64,000 nucleotides of DNA from Longimicrobiales bacterium (GCA_965202985.1 CBDBCF010000001.1:352001-416000); one strand, 5' to 3'; counted from the stretch's first letter, positions 37,794 to 49,700 are shown. Made by a program: the numbers.

Positions 37794-40700
37794 CGACGAT
37801 CGCCTTGTCCTTCATGCGCCGCATGTGATCCAGCGTGATCACGTTCTTGTTGCCCGTGGCGCTGACGAAGACGTCCGCGGTCTCCACCACGTCTTCCATC
37901 CGTGCCACCTGGAACCCTTCCATGGCCGCCTGCAACGCGCAGATCGGGTCGATCTCGGTGACCACCACGCGCGCGCCCTGGCCCCGCAGCGCCTGTGCGC
38001 ACCCCTTGCCCACTTCGCCGTACCCCAGGACCACCGCCACCTTGGCGGAGAGCATCACGTCCGAGGCCCTGTTCAGGCCGTCGATCACCGAGTGCCGGCA
38101 GCCGTAGACGTTGTCGAACTTGGACTTGGTGACGGAGTCGTTGACGTTGACGGCCGGGAACAGCAGCGTACCCTCCTTGGCCATCTCGTAGAGGCGGTGG
38201 ACACCGGTGGTCGTCTCTTCCGACACGCCCCGGATGCCGGCCGCCGCGCGTCGCCAACGGCCGTCGTCGAGCTGCAAGTGCGCGCGGAGCAGCTTCAGGA
38301 CTTCGCCCCACTCCTCGGGTTCGGCGGCGGGGTCGAAAGCGGGCACTGCGCCGGCCGCCTCGAACTCGACGCCCTTGTGGACCAGCAGCGTGGCGTCGCC
38401 GCCGTCGTCCAGGATCAGCGTGGGGCCTGCGTCGCCGGGCCACGCCAAGGCTTGCTCCGTGCACCACCAGTACTCTTCCAGCGACTCCCCCTTCCAGGCG
38501 AAGACGGCCGGCCCGCGGGGTTCGTCCGGCGCGCCGTCGGGGCCGACCACCACAGCGGCGGCGGCGTGGTCCTGCGTGGAGAAGATGTTGCACGACGCCC
38601 ACCGCACGTCGGCGCCCAGTTCGACCAAGGTCTCGATCAGGACGGCCGTCTGCACCGTCATGTGCAGCGAACCGGTGATGCGCGCCCCGGCCAGGGGCCT
38701 TTGCCCCTCGTACTCGCGCCGGAGCGCCACGAGTCCGGGCATCTCGTGCTCGGCGAGGCGGATTTCGTCGCGGCCCCAGTCGGCCAACGAGAGGTCGGCG
38801 ACGCGGAAGGGGGGGCGTTCCACGGCTGGCGCGGCCTTGGCCCGCGGCGGACTCTCTGCAGTGGCGGCTTCGGGAGAAGCAGGGGCAAGCAGCGTGGTCG
38901 GCATCGCTTCAGAATCCTCGTGGGGTAACTCGGCAGTCGTGCTTGGGCAGGGCGCTCCGGCTGGGCCCGGCAACCGGCCCGCTCGACTTCCAACCAGAGG
39001 CCGATGCCGACTCAGCGTAGCCGGTTCTTCTCCGCCAATCAAGGTTGGGCCGACGCAAACCCAGGCAGGAGGCCGCAATCTAGTCCAGCAAGCCCTCCAT
39101 GGCCGCCGAGGCCTCCCATTCCGCGTCGGAGCGGGAGATCCCCTGCCGCTGGTCGCGCGAGAGCCACTTGGCACGGCTTCCCGAAGCGGTGCGCTCGACC
39201 TCCAACACGTGGTCGACCTGCTCGGCGACGGCGCGCACATGGGAGATCACGCCGACCATGCGTCCCTTCGCCGCCACGGTTCCCAGCGCCTCGACGGCGG
39301 CGTCCAGGTTGCTGCGATCCAGGGAGCCGAACCCCTCGTCCAGGAAGAGCGACTCCAGCCGCCCCCCGGAGCGCGCCATCATCTCCACCATCCCAAGGGC
39401 CAGCGCCAGCGACGCGATGAACTGCTCGCCCCCCGACAGGCTGGCCGGCGACCGGGGCTGGCCGGACTCGTCGTCCAGCACTTGCCACTGCACTTCTTCG
39501 TTCTCGGGGTCCACGAACGAGTACTTGCCGCCGCTGATCTCGCCGAGCATTCGAGATGCATGGATCAGCAGGCTGCGCGAGCGTTGCAGGGTCAGCCACT
39601 TGGGGAAGGCGCCGTCCTTGAGGGCCTTGTCCAGGTCGCCGAGGGCGCGTTCCAGATCGCCGGCCTCGTCGAACAGGGCTCGGAGGGCGACGACGTCGTC
39701 CTTGATCGCGGCGAAGTCGTCGCGCTGGCGAGCATTGGTGCGGGCGGCGTAATCCGCGTCGTCGCGGGCGCTGTCGGCTTTGGTCACGACGTCTTCGGGG
39801 GCGGTCGGGAGTTCATCGGGCAGGGAGTCGACAGTTCCCGTTCCTGCGTCGAGCACGGGTTCCGCCTCGAAACGCCGGGCGACCAAGCGGCGGCCCAGCT
39901 CTTCCAAGGCGTCTCGTGCAGCCTGCTCCGCCGCGGCCGCCTCCTTGACGCGCTCTCGAGCGGCTTTGACGACGGCCAACGCGAGGCGGTGCAGGTTCCG
40001 CATCCATTCCTGGTGCACGGCCGGGGCTGTGGCAGAGGGCGCGCCGGGGAGGTCCGCGACGGCCCCCAGCGCGTCGCCCAAGGCTAGTGTGTTGACGGCC
40101 TGGAGCACGTCGTCGCGGTGGGAACCAAGCTTCTCGGCGATGTCGGAGAGGGGGCGACCGACTTCGTCGACCCGACGTCGCGCAAGGGATTCCCGTGCCT
40201 CGTCGGCTTCCTCCATCTCCCGATTGAGCCGTCGCCGTTGCCGCTCCCGATGCTCCAAGACGCGCCCGCGTTCCTGGGCTGCCGCTATGGGGCCGCTGGC
40301 CGCCGACCGATCGATCTTGTCCAGCTGTGCCGGGTCCGTAGGGAGGTCCGCTCGCGGTCGGTACGGCGACGGAGTCTCGTCCACGTTCCGTGCCAGTCGC
40401 GCCAACGCATCGACGGCAGTGCGCCGGGCCGCCTCCGCCAGCTCGTCGGCGCCGTTCGCCTCGGCTTCCGCCGTCGCGGCGTCGTTGGAGAGGCGCGCTT
40501 GCTCTTTCTCCAGGGTCTTGTGCTCGTCGTCGTGCCGGGCCAGCGCATCGGACGCCTCCTGGTGGACAGCCTCCAGCGGGCGAAGCAGCGACTCCATGGA
40601 AGGGAGGAGCGGTGCATCGGCGGCGGGTGCGTCGTTGGAAGCGGCGTCGGGGTCGTCGGAATTGGAGATGTCGTCGGCCGTCCCCGCGAAGAGGTCGCGG

Positions 40701-46700: not shown

Positions 46701-49700
46701 AGCGCGGCGCCCGCCCCCCAGCTTCCCGCCAATCCCATGCGCGTCTCGCCCTCCGCGCCGGTTCGGGTCAGCCGCGCCTCGATCCGCATGACGCCGTCCA
46801 CGAAGCACAGCCGTCGGGGCCGCTGGGCAAGGGGCGGCCTGTGCGCACGAAAGTCGCCCCCGTCCTCCACCACCTCGCACTCCAAGGCTTCGGGCGCGTC
46901 TTCCTGGGCCTCGAACCCCGCGCCGTGGCTTATCTCGAAAGGCTCCACGCCGATGGAGGGGGTTGTGGCCGGCGTCAAGTCACGCGCCCCAGACCGCAAT
47001 CTCCATCCCGTTCCGGGCCGTCCGGCTTTTCCGAAACACCTTCTCCTTCCAGCTGCGCTCCTGGCTTCGGTCGAAGACGACCAAGTGCCCCGCCTCCGCT
47101 CCGCAGCGGTCCATGTACGCCGCCGTCTGTTCCACGCCTTCCGCCACCGTCCGCTCCAGACTCCGGCGCTCGTGCCGCACCTTGCACGTACTTGCGCACC
47201 ACCTCGCCCTCCGGCCACTCGATCAGCAGGTCCGCCCGCCGGCGGCCCAGGCCGTGTTCGCGCTCGACCCGCCCGCCGCTGTTCACGACGCGTTGCAGGA
47301 ACGCCTGCAAGAGCAGTTGCGGCCCCGCCTCCTTGTACTCGAAGCGCTCGATCCAGCTCTCCGCGTTCTCTCGAAAGAACTCCTGGAACCGGGCCAGCAA
47401 CTTCTCCAGCCGCAGTCCGCCTTCGGCATCCACGAACCACGCCGGATCGTCCCGAATCTTCAGTTGGGTGGGCCACGTGAGCTGCCGGGGCACCACCTCC
47501 GCGTAGATCGGGTTGGCCATGCGCAGCGGCGCGTCGCGGGCGATCAGCCCCAAGTCCTGCGCGTATTCGATGTCGTCGGCAGTGGACTCGAAGCCGTCGC
47601 CACCGACCAACAGCGGCTCGATCACGCGTCGCACCCGGTTCTCGCGCAACTTGTCCGTCAGCTGGTCCAGGTGCGTGTCGCGACGCAGGATCAGCCTCTC
47701 CGTGGCCTCCAGCACGTCCGCCTCGGTCACGGCACGCGAACGGTCCGTCGCCAAGTCGCCCCGGAAGCATGTCTCGTAGGCCAGCGCGTTGACCAGCCAC
47801 GGCTGGCCTTGGGTCTGGGCCCACATCGCCTCCAGCGCGCCGTCGGCAAACGACTGGCCCGTCTCCTCGACGTGCTGCCCGAGGAGCGCGCGCACTTCGT
47901 CCCGCGAGAAGTCGTCCATGCGCAAGGACTCGGCCTTGATGTTGAACGCGCTGCCGCCGGCGACCATCGTATTCGCCGAACGAACCCCGCACAAGACCAC
48001 GCTCTGGGGAAACCGCTCGGGCCGGTGCGGATAGTCCGCGCGCAGCTGCCGCAACACGGACAACAGCGAATCGCCCACCAGCGCGTCGATTTCGTCGATC
48101 AGCAGCACCAGCGGCTTGTCTTCGGCTTGAGCCCAGCGCGACAACGCCTCGCCCAGCGCACCGGACCCGTGTTCGGCGAAGATTCCGGGCCACGCCTTCG
48201 TCAGATACTCGTCGCCCGTCCGTCTGGCCTGGCGGGCCATTTGACTCAAGATCACCTGCGTCGCCGCCTTCACGTCGTCGCGCATCGCCTGGCCGGCTTC
48301 CACGTTGACGTAGACGCAACGGTACTCTCCTTCCGTGTTCAACAGGGCCTGGAGCGCCAGCAACGCCCACGTCTTCCCCGTCTGTCGGGGCGCGTGAAGC
48401 ACGAAGTACCGCCGCAGATCGATCAGTTGCCGAAGTTCGGCAAGGCTCAATCGGGCAAGCGGCGGGATGCAGTAGTGGTCCTCCACCGTCACCGGACCGG
48501 ACGTGTTGAAGTAGCGCACCCCCTGTACCCCCCTGCTTCCTGGATTCGCTAATCCTGCCGACCGCGCCCGTCGCAGGTCAAGAGGAAATCGCGCGTCGTG
48601 GCCGACGGTCGCGCCGCTCGCCATCGGCTTCGGCCTGTTGGCCGAGTGCAAAGGCAAGATAGGCGACGAGGCCCGCAACCGGTGGAAGGGGCTGCCCACG
48701 ATCGGGGACGGGCAATCCGCAACCGGGACACCCTAGAGCTAGAAGACGATCCTGCCCGAGAGGCCGATGCGGTGTTCCGGGGGCTGGACGCCGCTGGCGA
48801 CGTGCTCGCCGAACAGGTCCATCATCAGGCGCAGGCCGGGGCCGGGGGCCGCGGGCTCCTGGCCGGTGGTCAAGCCGCCCAGCAACGACCAGCGCGTCCC
48901 CACGTTCACGCGTTGGCCCGTCGGTCCCTCGCGGCTCCACCGTCCGAACGGCTTGACCTGGGTGCCGCCGGGCAGCAGCACCCCGTAGCCGACCTCCATC
49001 GCCACGCGATCGGGCGTCCAGCTGGGTGCTCCCTGTGCCGACGCTTCGCCCTGGCTCTGGCGGAACTCCGGGCTTGCCGGGATGTTCGCGCCGACCGGCC
49101 GCGCAATCCGGCCCGGCGCGCCGAAGCCGCCCGCGCCCGCGGTCCGCCACACGTCGGCGCCCCCCTGCCACAGCGTCCGCGCGCCGCCCCCGGCGTCGCC
49201 CCACGTCGGCTCGACCGAGAACGACAGCCCGCCGCCCTCGCCCTCGCCGCCCCCGCCCGGCTGCAACCTCAGCGAGAACCCCGCGCCCCAGTCCTTGAAG
49301 TCGCGCTCCTGGTGCACCAGCAGCGCACGGCCTCGCGCCGTCACGCTGAACCCGCTGGCCTGATGCGCCAACCCCACCTCGGCACCCGCCTCCGCCCCCA
49401 TCCCCGTCTCCGCGTCGCCACCGTCGAAGCGACCTCCCACCTCGAACCGCGTCCGCATCGCCAGCCCGCCGCCCAGCTGCCACTGGCCGCCGATCTCCGG
49501 CGCCAGACGCACGCGCTGCGCGTCCGCCGTCACGCCCGCCAGCCCCGCCACCTCGTCCGACAAGATGCGCACCGCGAAAGCGTCCGCCTTCAGCGCCAAC
49601 CCGCCGGTCAGCTCCTGGCGCACGCCCAGCGCACCCATGCGCATCTCCAAGTCCGTGTCGAAACGACCGCCCGCCGACTCATCGAGCGTCGCGTCGCCCC

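Follow-up and report, generated by a model that had tools for sequence, protein, structure and literature searches.

Organization of the Gene Cluster

The window, a 64,000-bp stretch of DNA from a Longimicrobiales bacterium, carries on its minus strand the genes nurA, herA, sbcD and sbcC, in this order, with the catalytic motifs of all four intact (Table 1). The herA start codon lies on the nurA stop codon (ATGA overlap), a 423-bp gap separates herA from sbcD, and 4 bp separate the sbcD stop codon from the sbcC GTG. The dN/dS values, 0.18-0.37 and similar across the four genes, are indicative of purifying selection. Both this arrangement and the identities of the products agree with the note left by a genome-wide survey.

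Table 1. Features of the nurA-herA-sbcD-sbcC region (positions in the window)
Feature	Position	Strand	Remarks
nurA, bacterial-type RNase H-fold 5'-3' nuclease	45953..46978	-	family and fold by PDB 7F6D; start uncertain
herA, Deinococcus/Thermus-type ring ATPase	44103..45956	-	617 aa; PDB 7F6D HerA, E 2.9e-116, residues 8-597
Frameshifted 3' remnant of AlbA_2/HATPase_c_4-type gene	43906..44078	+	within herA-sbcD gap; insertion scar
Repeat, three CAGTCAAGAAA units	43719..43889		78-81% nucleotide identity to copies in same genome
Promoter-like site TTGACC-16-TAGATT	43686..43713	-	consensus match only
sbcD, Mre11-family nuclease	42357..43679	-	440 aa; TIGR00619 above cut-off
sbcC, ABC ATPase of the Rad50 family (coiled coil, zinc hook)	39080..42352	-	1090 aa; GTG start

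Identification of the Four Products

The nurA frame encodes 331 amino acids from a GTG at 46948 and 341 from a TTG at 46978. The TTG is the likelier start, because the conserved IGVEPF strand is then retained; in the alignment, the homologue consensus reaches upstream of the GTG. The N-terminal IGVEPF..YG/HG stretch, a candidate for the dimer strand and pin motif of Deinococcus-Thermus NurA, is conserved; the start codon is uncertain, and residues 1-17 of the monomer model have pLDDT <50. In a profile search Pfam PF09376 matched NurA under its cut-off (E 0.026), and at least 120 homologues, many with PF09376, were found among the matches listed. NurA of PDB 7F6D was matched by sequence at E 1.9e-18; by fold, the E-values were 7.9e-17 to 7F6D, 1.7e-13 to 1ZUP and 6.9e-7 to archaeal 2YGK. 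Residues D51, K194 and R284 (counted from the GTG) align with the catalytic D53, K201 and R309 of Deinococcus radiodurans NurA, as determined by alignment to 7F6D_H and a hand count with a 20-residue tag offset.

The weak PADLOC match of HerA reported by the survey was reproduced (2.9e-5), but PADLOC HerA matches span the Walker B region only, and the match to 7F6D HerA is much stronger. K173, D214 and D477/E478 of HerA correspond to D. radiodurans K175 (Walker A), D220 and D487/E488 (Walker B).

SbcD scored 121 bits in the TIGR00619 profile search (cut-off 77.65), is encoded by the only sbcD above the cut-off in its genome and contains the phosphoesterase motifs SDWH, AGD, GNHD, AAHLH and GHIH. 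SbcC scored 210 bits with TIGR00618 (E 3.9e-62), under the curated cut-off of 478.5; its top PDB match is SbcC 6S6V (E 4.7e-32). The split ABC ATPase is complete in its motifs (Walker A, Q-loop, LSGGE, Walker B and H-loop), and the zinc hook reads CPVC. A PADLOC mad8 match (1.7e-13) was dropped as generic, because mad8 also matches SbcC.

The Proteins Are of Bacterial Type

The survey's label "archaeal-type" does not fit these proteins. The HerA-family profile gave 723 bits on D. radiodurans HerA and only 45 and 30 on archaeal 9X1L and 4D2I; the NurA fold is nearest to the two bacterial NurA structures; SbcD scored at most 52.5 bits on archaeal Mre11 models and SbcC at most 107 on Rad50 models, and both match bacterial structures better than archaeal ones. 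An archaeal origin of the window copies was rejected on profile, fold and model scores, the trees described below being without archaeal sequences.

The NurA-HerA systems of D. radiodurans and Thermus thermophilus (7F6D, 7WRW, 7WRX; PMC9960219, PMC5448004) belong to the same families, have the same catalytic residues and show the same overlap of nurA stop and herA start. The window proteins are 43-44% (HerA) and 29-32% (NurA) identical to the Deinococcus copies. In the window the pair is joined to sbcD-sbcC, whereas in Deinococcus sbcCD is located elsewhere; the window's genome also differs in having an AddAB-like pair, as the survey had noted. The window SbcD and SbcC also belong to the families of E. 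coli SbcCD and have every motif; the difference is that HerA-linked SbcD forms a separate clade that moves with HerA and NurA.

In archaea (Sulfolobales, Thermococcales), a herA-mre11-rad50-nurA operon clusters four like functions (PMC13748450, PMC2288612). The commonest bacterial order, herA-sbcD-sbcC-nurA, equals that of Sulfolobales, while the window proteins are only remotely like their archaeal counterparts. The Sulfolobus cluster is essential (PMC4641729), whereas the bacterial one is dispensable and stands beside AddAB/AdnAB.

Distribution of the Cluster

All four genes were present at 61 of 80 GTDB loci of the window HerA family, and at 49 of the 53 with full flanks, among the matches listed. 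These loci were mostly actinomycetotal and had two gene orders, with Deinococcus as the exception; herA-sbcD-sbcC-nurA was the commonest order (38/80), again among the matches listed. Since the scan required an exact Walker A match, returned at least 119 rows with flanks for 80 and was Actinomycetota-heavy, these shares are not a census. In further independent samples, the conserved order recurred at 14 of 23 metagenome loci, 8 more reaching a sequence end, and in 14 of 18 family relatives.

The conserved order across phyla claimed by the survey is therefore real. It had been described as stable in sponge-associated bacteria; instead, it is the rule across the whole HerA family, chiefly in Actinomycetota, and is least stable in the window clade, where nurA-herA and sbcD-sbcC are unlinked in four of the nine closest relatives (those four keep both halves). 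The survey's counts (57/80 etc.), host list and sponge association were not reproduced, only Gemmatimonadota and Acidobacteriota names being met. Early studies by Iyer and by Constantinesco (both 2004) reportedly discuss bacterial HerA neighbourhoods and may contain earlier notice of the cluster.

[quoted passage not shown] The counts above conflict with this sentence, as the survey held; the order itself is not new, since Blesa et al. (2017) noted that in Oceanithermus profundus sbcD and sbcC lie downstream of nurA-hepA(herA), and likened this to the archaeal arrangement (PMC5448004, section 3.1). According to that paper, Oceanithermus has the same genes in the same order; Blesa et al. see a one-off recruitment of sbcD/sbcC, whereas here the linkage is the family norm and four trees agree. 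The cluster is thus made of known parts in a known order, and is real and far commoner in bacteria than the review says. Should the four genes stay together in most carriers, the review's statement needs correcting, and culturable actinomycetes (Micromonospora, Actinoplanes) become natural test systems.

Within the window's family the cluster is patchy, as the survey had found: window-type HerA occurs in 19 of 151 genomes, all 19 also having sbcD, and sbcD in 23. Since neither herA nor sbcD was found in 128 of the 151, and the cluster is missing from 264 of 301 phylum genomes searched, it is dispensable.

Congruent Gene Trees and Genomic Context

Comparison of gene trees, made without a species-tree control, revealed 34 of 42 strong splits common to HerA and SbcD (1 conflict, patristic rho 0.97), 27 of 38 common to HerA and SbcC (1 conflict, rho 0.95) and 37 of 45 common to HerA and NurA (4 conflicts, rho 0.81). 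HerA-linked SbcD forms one clade apart from the six housekeeping SbcD used as the only outgroup. The stand-alone Deinococcus SbcD is sister to that of a cyanobacterial four-gene plasmid locus (99/99 in the SbcD tree; 99 in the HerA tree), which suggests that Deinococcus may have split an ancestral operon. An AU test with six outgroup SbcD did not reject placement of the Deinococcus SbcD on the housekeeping side, outside the HerA-linked clade (p 0.127).

The cluster's flanks are mostly housekeeping genes conserved within lineages, e.g., RibD_C in Micromonosporaceae, GSDH in Acidimicrobiia, and glyQS-SDR and NifU in the window's family. Around the loci closest to the window clade the DNA is island-like (IrrE, AbiEii, HIRAN), which counts against a role in accessory end processing. 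One can ask whether the cluster defends the cell against incoming linear DNA (phage, plasmid or transforming DNA), with SbcCD sensing free ends and HerA-NurA degrading. The cluster is patchy and horizontally moved, with three distinct subtypes in one family; it was whole at all four plasmid-collection loci read, one of them adjoining an IrrE peptidase and a TIGR02678/TIGR02680/DUF2397 cluster and another beside TIR, kinase and IrrE genes; and an antiviral role of bacterial NurA-HerA is asserted in the 2026 review (PMC13748450). Plausible defence neighbours were present at 8 of 48 loci and no plausible PADLOC neighbour at the other 40 (raw counts, up to three called flanking genes). Yet the conserved metabolic flanks, the 12.5 bits obtained with the anti-phage HerA model NF042943 (cut-off 800), the fact that linked sbcD is usually the sole one of its genome (32 of 38 non-Deinococcus genomes checked), and matches in only 6 of 72,556 plasmid and 2 of 50,697 phage records, the phage ones weak, make defence unlikely.

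It is very improbable that the cluster helps DNA transfer, like the NurA-TdtA pair of Thermus transjugation. T. thermophilus DNA donation needs a HerA/FtsK ATPase together with a nuclease resembling NurA (PMC5365140), and the cluster is mobile; but the same paper sets TdtA apart from the D. radiodurans HerA family, to which window HerA belongs, no integrase or restriction enzyme adjoins the cluster within the window, and constant sbcCD linkage suits end processing better.

Altered Pore of the Window-Type HerA

In D. radiodurans HerA, the pore arginines R495 and R552 serve translocation, and either R495A or R552A abolishes 5' resection. The R495 position is A485 in window HerA: alanine was found in 10 of 10 clade sequences and arginine in 84 of 84 others; none of the 119 readable homologues and none of the 18 metagenome loci has arginine there. 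The EVERR motif has become AVAPA/AVAQA, and the R552 equivalent is absent owing to a clade-wide two-residue deletion. This clade-wide loss of pore arginines is a new observation and, judged from alignments, would count against resection of the D. radiodurans kind. In two genera, window-type and canonical HerA never share a genome, each carrier having just one of them (12 and 5 of 19 genomes; 2 and 8 of 10), so the two types behave as if interchangeable. The natural variant can be used to ask how HerA grips DNA.

The altered pore, the unlinked halves and a promoter-like site of sbcD's own are what would be expected if the machine had come apart in the window lineage, SbcCD acting alone on hairpins or stalled forks and HerA serving as an ATP-regulated scaffold or activator of NurA without long-range translocation. 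We regard this as quite unlikely: all four genes are kept even when split, under similar selection; window-type HerA replaces the canonical type one-for-one; new basic residues nearby (e.g., R525, from the alignment) could compensate; the HerA-SbcD prediction described below, if weak, was obtained with the window copy; and tight four-gene clusters with the same HerA type persist in G054 and G082 (gaps 55-68 bp) and at most metagenome loci.

Transcription and Regulation

The survey spoke of a four-gene operon. The gene cluster stands, but "operon" is doubtful in the window's genome (G000), because the 423-bp insertion scar and the promoter-like site part herA from sbcD; there are probably two transcription units, nurA-herA and sbcD-sbcC. 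The remnant is 64-79% identical to the C-terminus of a gene at G000:C2:263501-265177, its family name being taken from a G101 homologue. Copies of the CAGTCAAGAAA repeat lie at G000:C1:1153331-1153481 and C2:266923-267034, and such a repeat also precedes sbcD in relatives G055 and G048. The promoter-like site precedes the GTG of sbcD by 6 nt, a leaderless spacing, and is the only one in 38800-48900, where shuffled sequence gives 0.4 +/- 0.7; TAGATT occurs at the same spacing in 6 of 10 close-type relatives compared.

A PafBC/RecA-NDp-like motif with one mismatch precedes window sbcD; the scan used the spacing N10-TA-N3-T, which we take to be that of PafBC. Such motifs were found upstream of the cluster at 19 of 73 loci and in 1 of 469 control windows; since the latter are mostly not promoters, part of this enrichment is a mere -10 element. 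The published motif is 22 nt long with a 5' element TGTCGG (PMC8682763). A tandem WYL pair, looked for as pafB-pafC, is present in G000. The recA, uvrA, uvrB and lexA genes of G000 have no PafBC-like motif, and a PafBC regulon in this genome is not supported: its 215 one-mismatch and 17 exact sites showed no evident repair-gene enrichment. LexA control was rejected, GAAC-N4-GTTC boxes being about as frequent upstream (1 of 38, 0 of 23 and 1 of 6 windows) as in controls.

A Probable Role in DNA-End Processing

We favor, with some reserve, the view that the cluster is an accessory, probably damage-induced DNA-end-processing module of four coevolving proteins. Gene identities, catalytic residues, purifying selection, linkage, co-occurrence and congruent trees are what the analysis demonstrates, and they speak for this view, as do the separate clade of linked SbcD, the mostly housekeeping neighbours and the PafBC-like motifs upstream; the biochemical steps, the regulation and the cellular role are inferred, as follows. 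By analogy with the SbcCD family, SbcC-SbcD would find and clean blocked, hairpinned or protein-bound ends. The HerA ring, probably recruited via SbcD as in archaea, would pass the end on to a dimer of NurA, which would degrade the 5' strand and leave a 3' tail for RecA; 5' resection by D. radiodurans NurA-HerA has been demonstrated in vitro. In the window's genome the module would likely be made from two transcripts. It would act beside AddAB/AdnAB and RecJ and not replace them: both RecJ and an AddAB-like pair are encoded in G000, and 53 of 56 carrier genomes contain a PDDEXK_1 nuclease, in many cases within frames of ~1000 codons or more. The cluster was therefore rejected as a replacement for missing AddAB.

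A HerA-SbcD contact finds weak support in a complex prediction with the window copy, which scored 0.42 (best control, 0.00) with runs agreeing in at least 80% of contacts and partner pLDDT of at least 77; among solved pairs 116 of 157 reached the prediction mark, and among mismatched pairs 2 of 215, but 18 of the 157 solved pairs and both mismatches did so at <=0.60. Archaeal HerA co-precipitates with Rad50-Mre11 (PMC2288612). Against the end-processing role, deletion of D. radiodurans nurA-herA raises UV and mitomycin C resistance ~10-fold (PMC9960219). The other nucleases just named, the many genomes that do without the cluster and the lack of LexA-box enrichment weigh on the same side. PMC9960219 calls the role of bacterial NurA-HerA controversial, and PMC4663267 did not settle how it relates to SbcCD; Deinococcus and Thermus are so far the only bacteria in which it has been studied.

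More speculatively, and on balance doubtfully, bacterial NurA-HerA could in its ancestral and usual form be this four-protein machine, with a coevolving SbcCD subfamily of its own, a direct contact between HerA and SbcD and, in actinobacteria, induction of the PafBC type; it would provide a third route of resection alongside AddAB/AdnAB and RecJ. The window clade would then have a rebuilt HerA pore, gripping DNA differently or relying on SbcCD for loading, and Deinococcus and Thermus would be split derivatives, which, if true, would explain their puzzling knockout phenotypes.

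Identity and Bacterial Affiliation of the Four Genes

The nurA-herA-sbcD-sbcC cluster is real, and both its parts and their arrangement were known before; its breadth in bacteria is under-recognized, and the new element is a clade-specific HerA variant. The genome-wide survey's note had taken the products of two unannotated genes, g316 and g315, for a NurA nuclease and a HerA ATPase. Despite Pfam and PADLOC matches that are only weak, these identities are settled because solved structures match: HerA aligns with D. radiodurans HerA (7F6D) over nearly its full length (E = 2.9e-116) and NurA with the NurA of the same entry (E = 1.9e-18), which removes the worry about weak hits. 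A fold search with the NurA model (pLDDT 82.6) retrieved 7F6D, Thermotoga 1ZUP and then archaeal 2YGK. The catalytic residues of the D. radiodurans proteins were named by Yang et al. 2023 (PMC9960219); D51, K194 and R284 are kept in NurA, and K173, D214, D477 and E478 in HerA. SbcD has 5/5 phosphoesterase motifs, and SbcC has the complete ATPase motif set and a CPVC hook. The source genome carries one intact copy of each gene; a second sbcD-like frame scores below the cut-off and lacks an adjoining sbcC. For all four genes, dN/dS is 0.18–0.37 relative to up to five close relatives.

The label "archaeal-type", also given in that note, had to be dropped. A HerA-family profile (60 sequences) scored 723 bits on D. 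radiodurans HerA versus 45 and 30 bits on archaeal HerA; SbcD scored 121 bits with the bacterial sbcD model versus at most 52.5 with archaeal Mre11 models, and SbcC 210 versus at most 107 bits. The top-ranked PDB chains for SbcD and SbcC carry these names. All of these measures favor the bacterial versions: gene content is shared with the archaeal system, whereas the proteins of the window cluster fall outside archaeal membership.

Positions of features in the window (C1:352001–416000), on contigs C1 and C2 of the source genome and in genome G105
Feature	Position	Strand	Remarks
nurA	window 45953–46948	minus	331 aa, counted from GTG
herA	window 44103–45956	minus	617 aa; ATGA overlap with nurA
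herA-sbcD gap			423 bp
sbcD	window 42357–43679	minus	
sbcC	window 39080–42352	minus	4 bp beyond sbcD
Repeat	window 43719–43889		in herA-sbcD gap; CAGTCAAGAAA units around an inverted core
Repeat, other copy	C1:1153331–1153481		
Repeat, other copy	C2:266923–267034		
AAA ATPase gene	window 46975–48519	minus	C-terminal tail read as nuclease-like
Surface protein gene	window 48739–59112	minus	3457 aa, repeat-rich; upstream of cluster
glyQS/short-chain dehydrogenase site	C2:775–788 kb		
Giant frame	C2:777913–788067		3385 codons
Tandem HTH-WYL genes	C1:821644–823982	plus	
lexA upstream region	C1:2500687	minus	
tRNA array	C1:1863700–1865556	one strand	17 tRNA genes, tight
sbcD-sbcC of L209	G105:C7:74258–78007		

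The AAA ATPase gene belongs to a set of more than 20 near-full-length paralogues in the source genome (58–79% identity) and has an apparent frameshift near 47190; both frames stop beside the probable TTG start of nurA. At two related loci (L149 in G055 and L153 in G048), nurA has no in-frame ATG, GTG or TTG upstream of the conserved IGVEPF motif, and genes of this group may have an unusual start codon or be shortened.

Distribution of the Four-Gene Linkage

GTDB genomes were scanned for the Walker A motif of the HerA family, which gave at least 119 rows, with flanks for 80. Among the matches listed, all four genes were present at 61/80 loci; the order was herA-sbcD-sbcC-nurA at 38 of the 80 and nurA-herA-sbcD-sbcC at 20, with 3 more of the latter having sbcC cut by a contig end. 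With flanks of 1.5 kb or more upstream and 6.5 kb or more downstream, 49 of 53 listed loci had all four genes; two of the remaining four had no detected nurA, and two were Deinococcus loci with nurA-herA alone. In a plasmid collection, the four genes were found at 4/4 loci read (of 6 matches), from Nonomuraea, Streptomyces, a cyanobacterium and Chlorohelix, and 14 of 23 metagenome loci of closer relatives had all four (8 were cut by an end and 1 lacked sbcD within 4.3 kb). The conserved order across phyla described in the note is thus borne out. Since the cluster occurs in many hosts, chiefly Actinomycetota but also Acidobacteriota, Chloroflexota, Pseudomonadota and Deinococcota among the matches listed, it is probably no feature of sponge bacteria.

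The note correctly quoted a 2026 review (PMC13748450) as saying that bacterial nurA genes lack a stable syntenic association with herA, mre11 and rad50, a statement contradicted by the linkage data gathered here. Blesa et al. 2017 (PMC5448004) had already placed the sbcD and sbcC genes of Oceanithermus profundus downstream of nurA-hepA and likened the arrangement to the archaeal system. NurA and HerA are known in Cyanobacteria, Actinobacteria and Firmicutes (PMC8708640), and the link to SbcCD is left open in PMC4663267. The NurA/HerA literature searched, mostly without subscription papers, contained neither a bacteria-wide survey of the four-gene cluster nor a report of pore-arginine loss.

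Some loci had features of their own. L001 (NZ_LT559118.1) is an 11.85-Mb record labeled a plasmid in PLSDB and probably a chromosome. On one Acidimicrobiaceae contig (L039), herA-sbcD-sbcC is present twice, as adjoining sets that diverge from each other. At four Acidimicrobiia loci (L032, L043, L055 and L068, in G166, G173, G178 and G181), large PDDEXK_1 genes, paired and AdnAB-like, are on the same contig as the cluster, ca. 9–12 kb away from its sbcD.

Coupling of the Four Genes

Within the window's family (151 genomes), this HerA is found in 19 genomes, 19/19 of which have sbcD; sbcD occurs in 23, and 128 have neither gene. Of 41 genomes chosen among those of the 80 loci, 38 are not Deinococcus, and 32 of these have only one sbcD; in four (G151, G155, G160 and G179), coordinates confirmed that this sole sbcD is the cluster copy. 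Trees of 94 HerA, 87 NurA, 96 SbcD and 82 SbcC (frameshifted and short-match rows dropped) were set against one another, not against a species tree, and were congruent (rho 0.81–0.97); HerA and SbcD shared 34/42 strong splits, with one conflict, and sorted three subtypes within the window's family in the same way. All linked SbcD form a single clade, separate from six stand-alone SbcD that include the E. coli protein; its support was 99 in a quick tree and 89/97 in a more careful one. The SbcD of Deinococcus, which is stand-alone, clusters with a cyanobacterial four-gene locus, parallel to Deinococcus HerA; an AU test also allowed its placement outside the linked clade (p = 0.127).

In archaea, co-precipitation of HerA with Rad50 and Mre11 has been reported (PMC2288612). 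Complex prediction weakly supported a HerA-SbcD pair, at 0.42 versus 0.00 for the best control, in a range (0.60 or below) that held 18/157 solved pairs and both mismatches that passed; contacts agreed by at least 80% between runs, and partner pLDDT was at least 77. We know of no solved HerA-Mre11 complex.

Locus L209 has sbcD-sbcC of the window's type with no herA match in its genome; the sequence that precedes sbcD is similar to the 3′ end of herA in relatives, which suggests a deletion.

Locus History and Transcription Units

The note had described a four-gene operon. The gene order held; a single transcription unit in the source genome is doubtful, given an insertion-bearing gap and a promoter-like site before sbcD, and the cluster probably comprises two units. 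What remains of an AlbA_2/HATPase-type gene, a 3′ fragment with a frameshift, lies in the herA-sbcD gap together with a repeat that may be a recombination site driving insertions at this junction. Its other copies adjoin cassettes read from their ORFs as toxin-antitoxin or defense-like. The promoter-like site, 6 nt before the sbcD start, is the sole such site in 10 kb; its TAGATT is kept in 6/10 close-type relatives and missing from the two with gaps of 55–68 bp.

In five of the nine closest relatives the four genes are together, and in four the halves lie 17 kb to 1.7 Mb apart, both still kept. In 7/9, nurA adjoins glyQS and a short-chain dehydrogenase gene. This site in the source genome holds decayed nurA and herA pieces, and therefore the window copy moved or was re-acquired as a block. 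The giant frame occupies this ancestral site; a relative of the other giant gene, that of the window's surface protein, was found after herA in G055.

Loss of HerA Pore Arginines

In D. radiodurans HerA, R495 and R552 hold the DNA, and 5′ resection is lost when either is changed to Ala (PMC9960219). At the R495 position, 10/10 window-clade HerA have Ala versus Arg in 84/84 other HerA; Arg was found in 0/119 readable homologues (of 120 listed) and in 0/18 metagenome copies. The window's clade and its three sister loci have a deletion at the R552 position, and AVAPA or AVAQA stands in place of EVERR. A decoupled state with non-translocating HerA is, in our estimate, improbable. The ATPase motifs of window-clade HerA are intact, and purifying selection is kept. 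In two genera, no genome combines window-type with canonical-type HerA and carriers have one or the other, which suggests that, through compensation, the two would be equal in function.

Regulation, Neighborhood and Likely Role

The canonical LexA box was not enriched upstream of cluster loci. The PafBC/RecA-NDp motif has a defined inner spacing. Its 5′ element and 22-nt length are described in PMC8682763, and PafBC regulation in PMC8223512 and PMC6789036. A PafBC-like motif was present within 200 bp upstream of 19/73 loci (9 exact) versus 1/469 further-upstream windows, which are mostly non-promoter. The source genome has a one-mismatch site before sbcD and a two-mismatch motif before the first of its tandem HTH-WYL genes, which resemble actinobacterial pafB-pafC in a non-actinobacterial genome; the motif is absent before its recA, uvrA, uvrB and lexA. 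Upstream of lexA there is a GTTC-N7-GTTC direct repeat with several units of TTCGG, also found before recA, which makes this a candidate LexA site for the lineage.

The reading that we favor, as moderately probable, is an accessory and probably damage-induced route beside AddAB: SbcCD would clean blocked or hairpinned DNA ends and pass them to HerA-NurA for 5′ resection. The source genome also has an AddAB-like pair, RecJ, RecA and LexA, and a PDDEXK_1 nuclease was found in 53/56 carrier genomes. Counted against end cleaning and resection were the lost pore arginines of the window's clade, the dispensability of the cluster and, from PMC9960219, the raised resistance of a D. radiodurans knockout. 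DNA donation appears very improbable. Defense against incoming DNA is rather unlikely. The flanks of 48 four-gene loci (without 10 near-duplicates) yielded 129 ORF calls, of which 12 matched PADLOC at 1e-10, four of them housekeeping look-alikes, and a plausible defense neighbor was found at 8/48 loci (raw count).

Elsewhere on contig C1, the source genome carries a tight array of tRNA genes.
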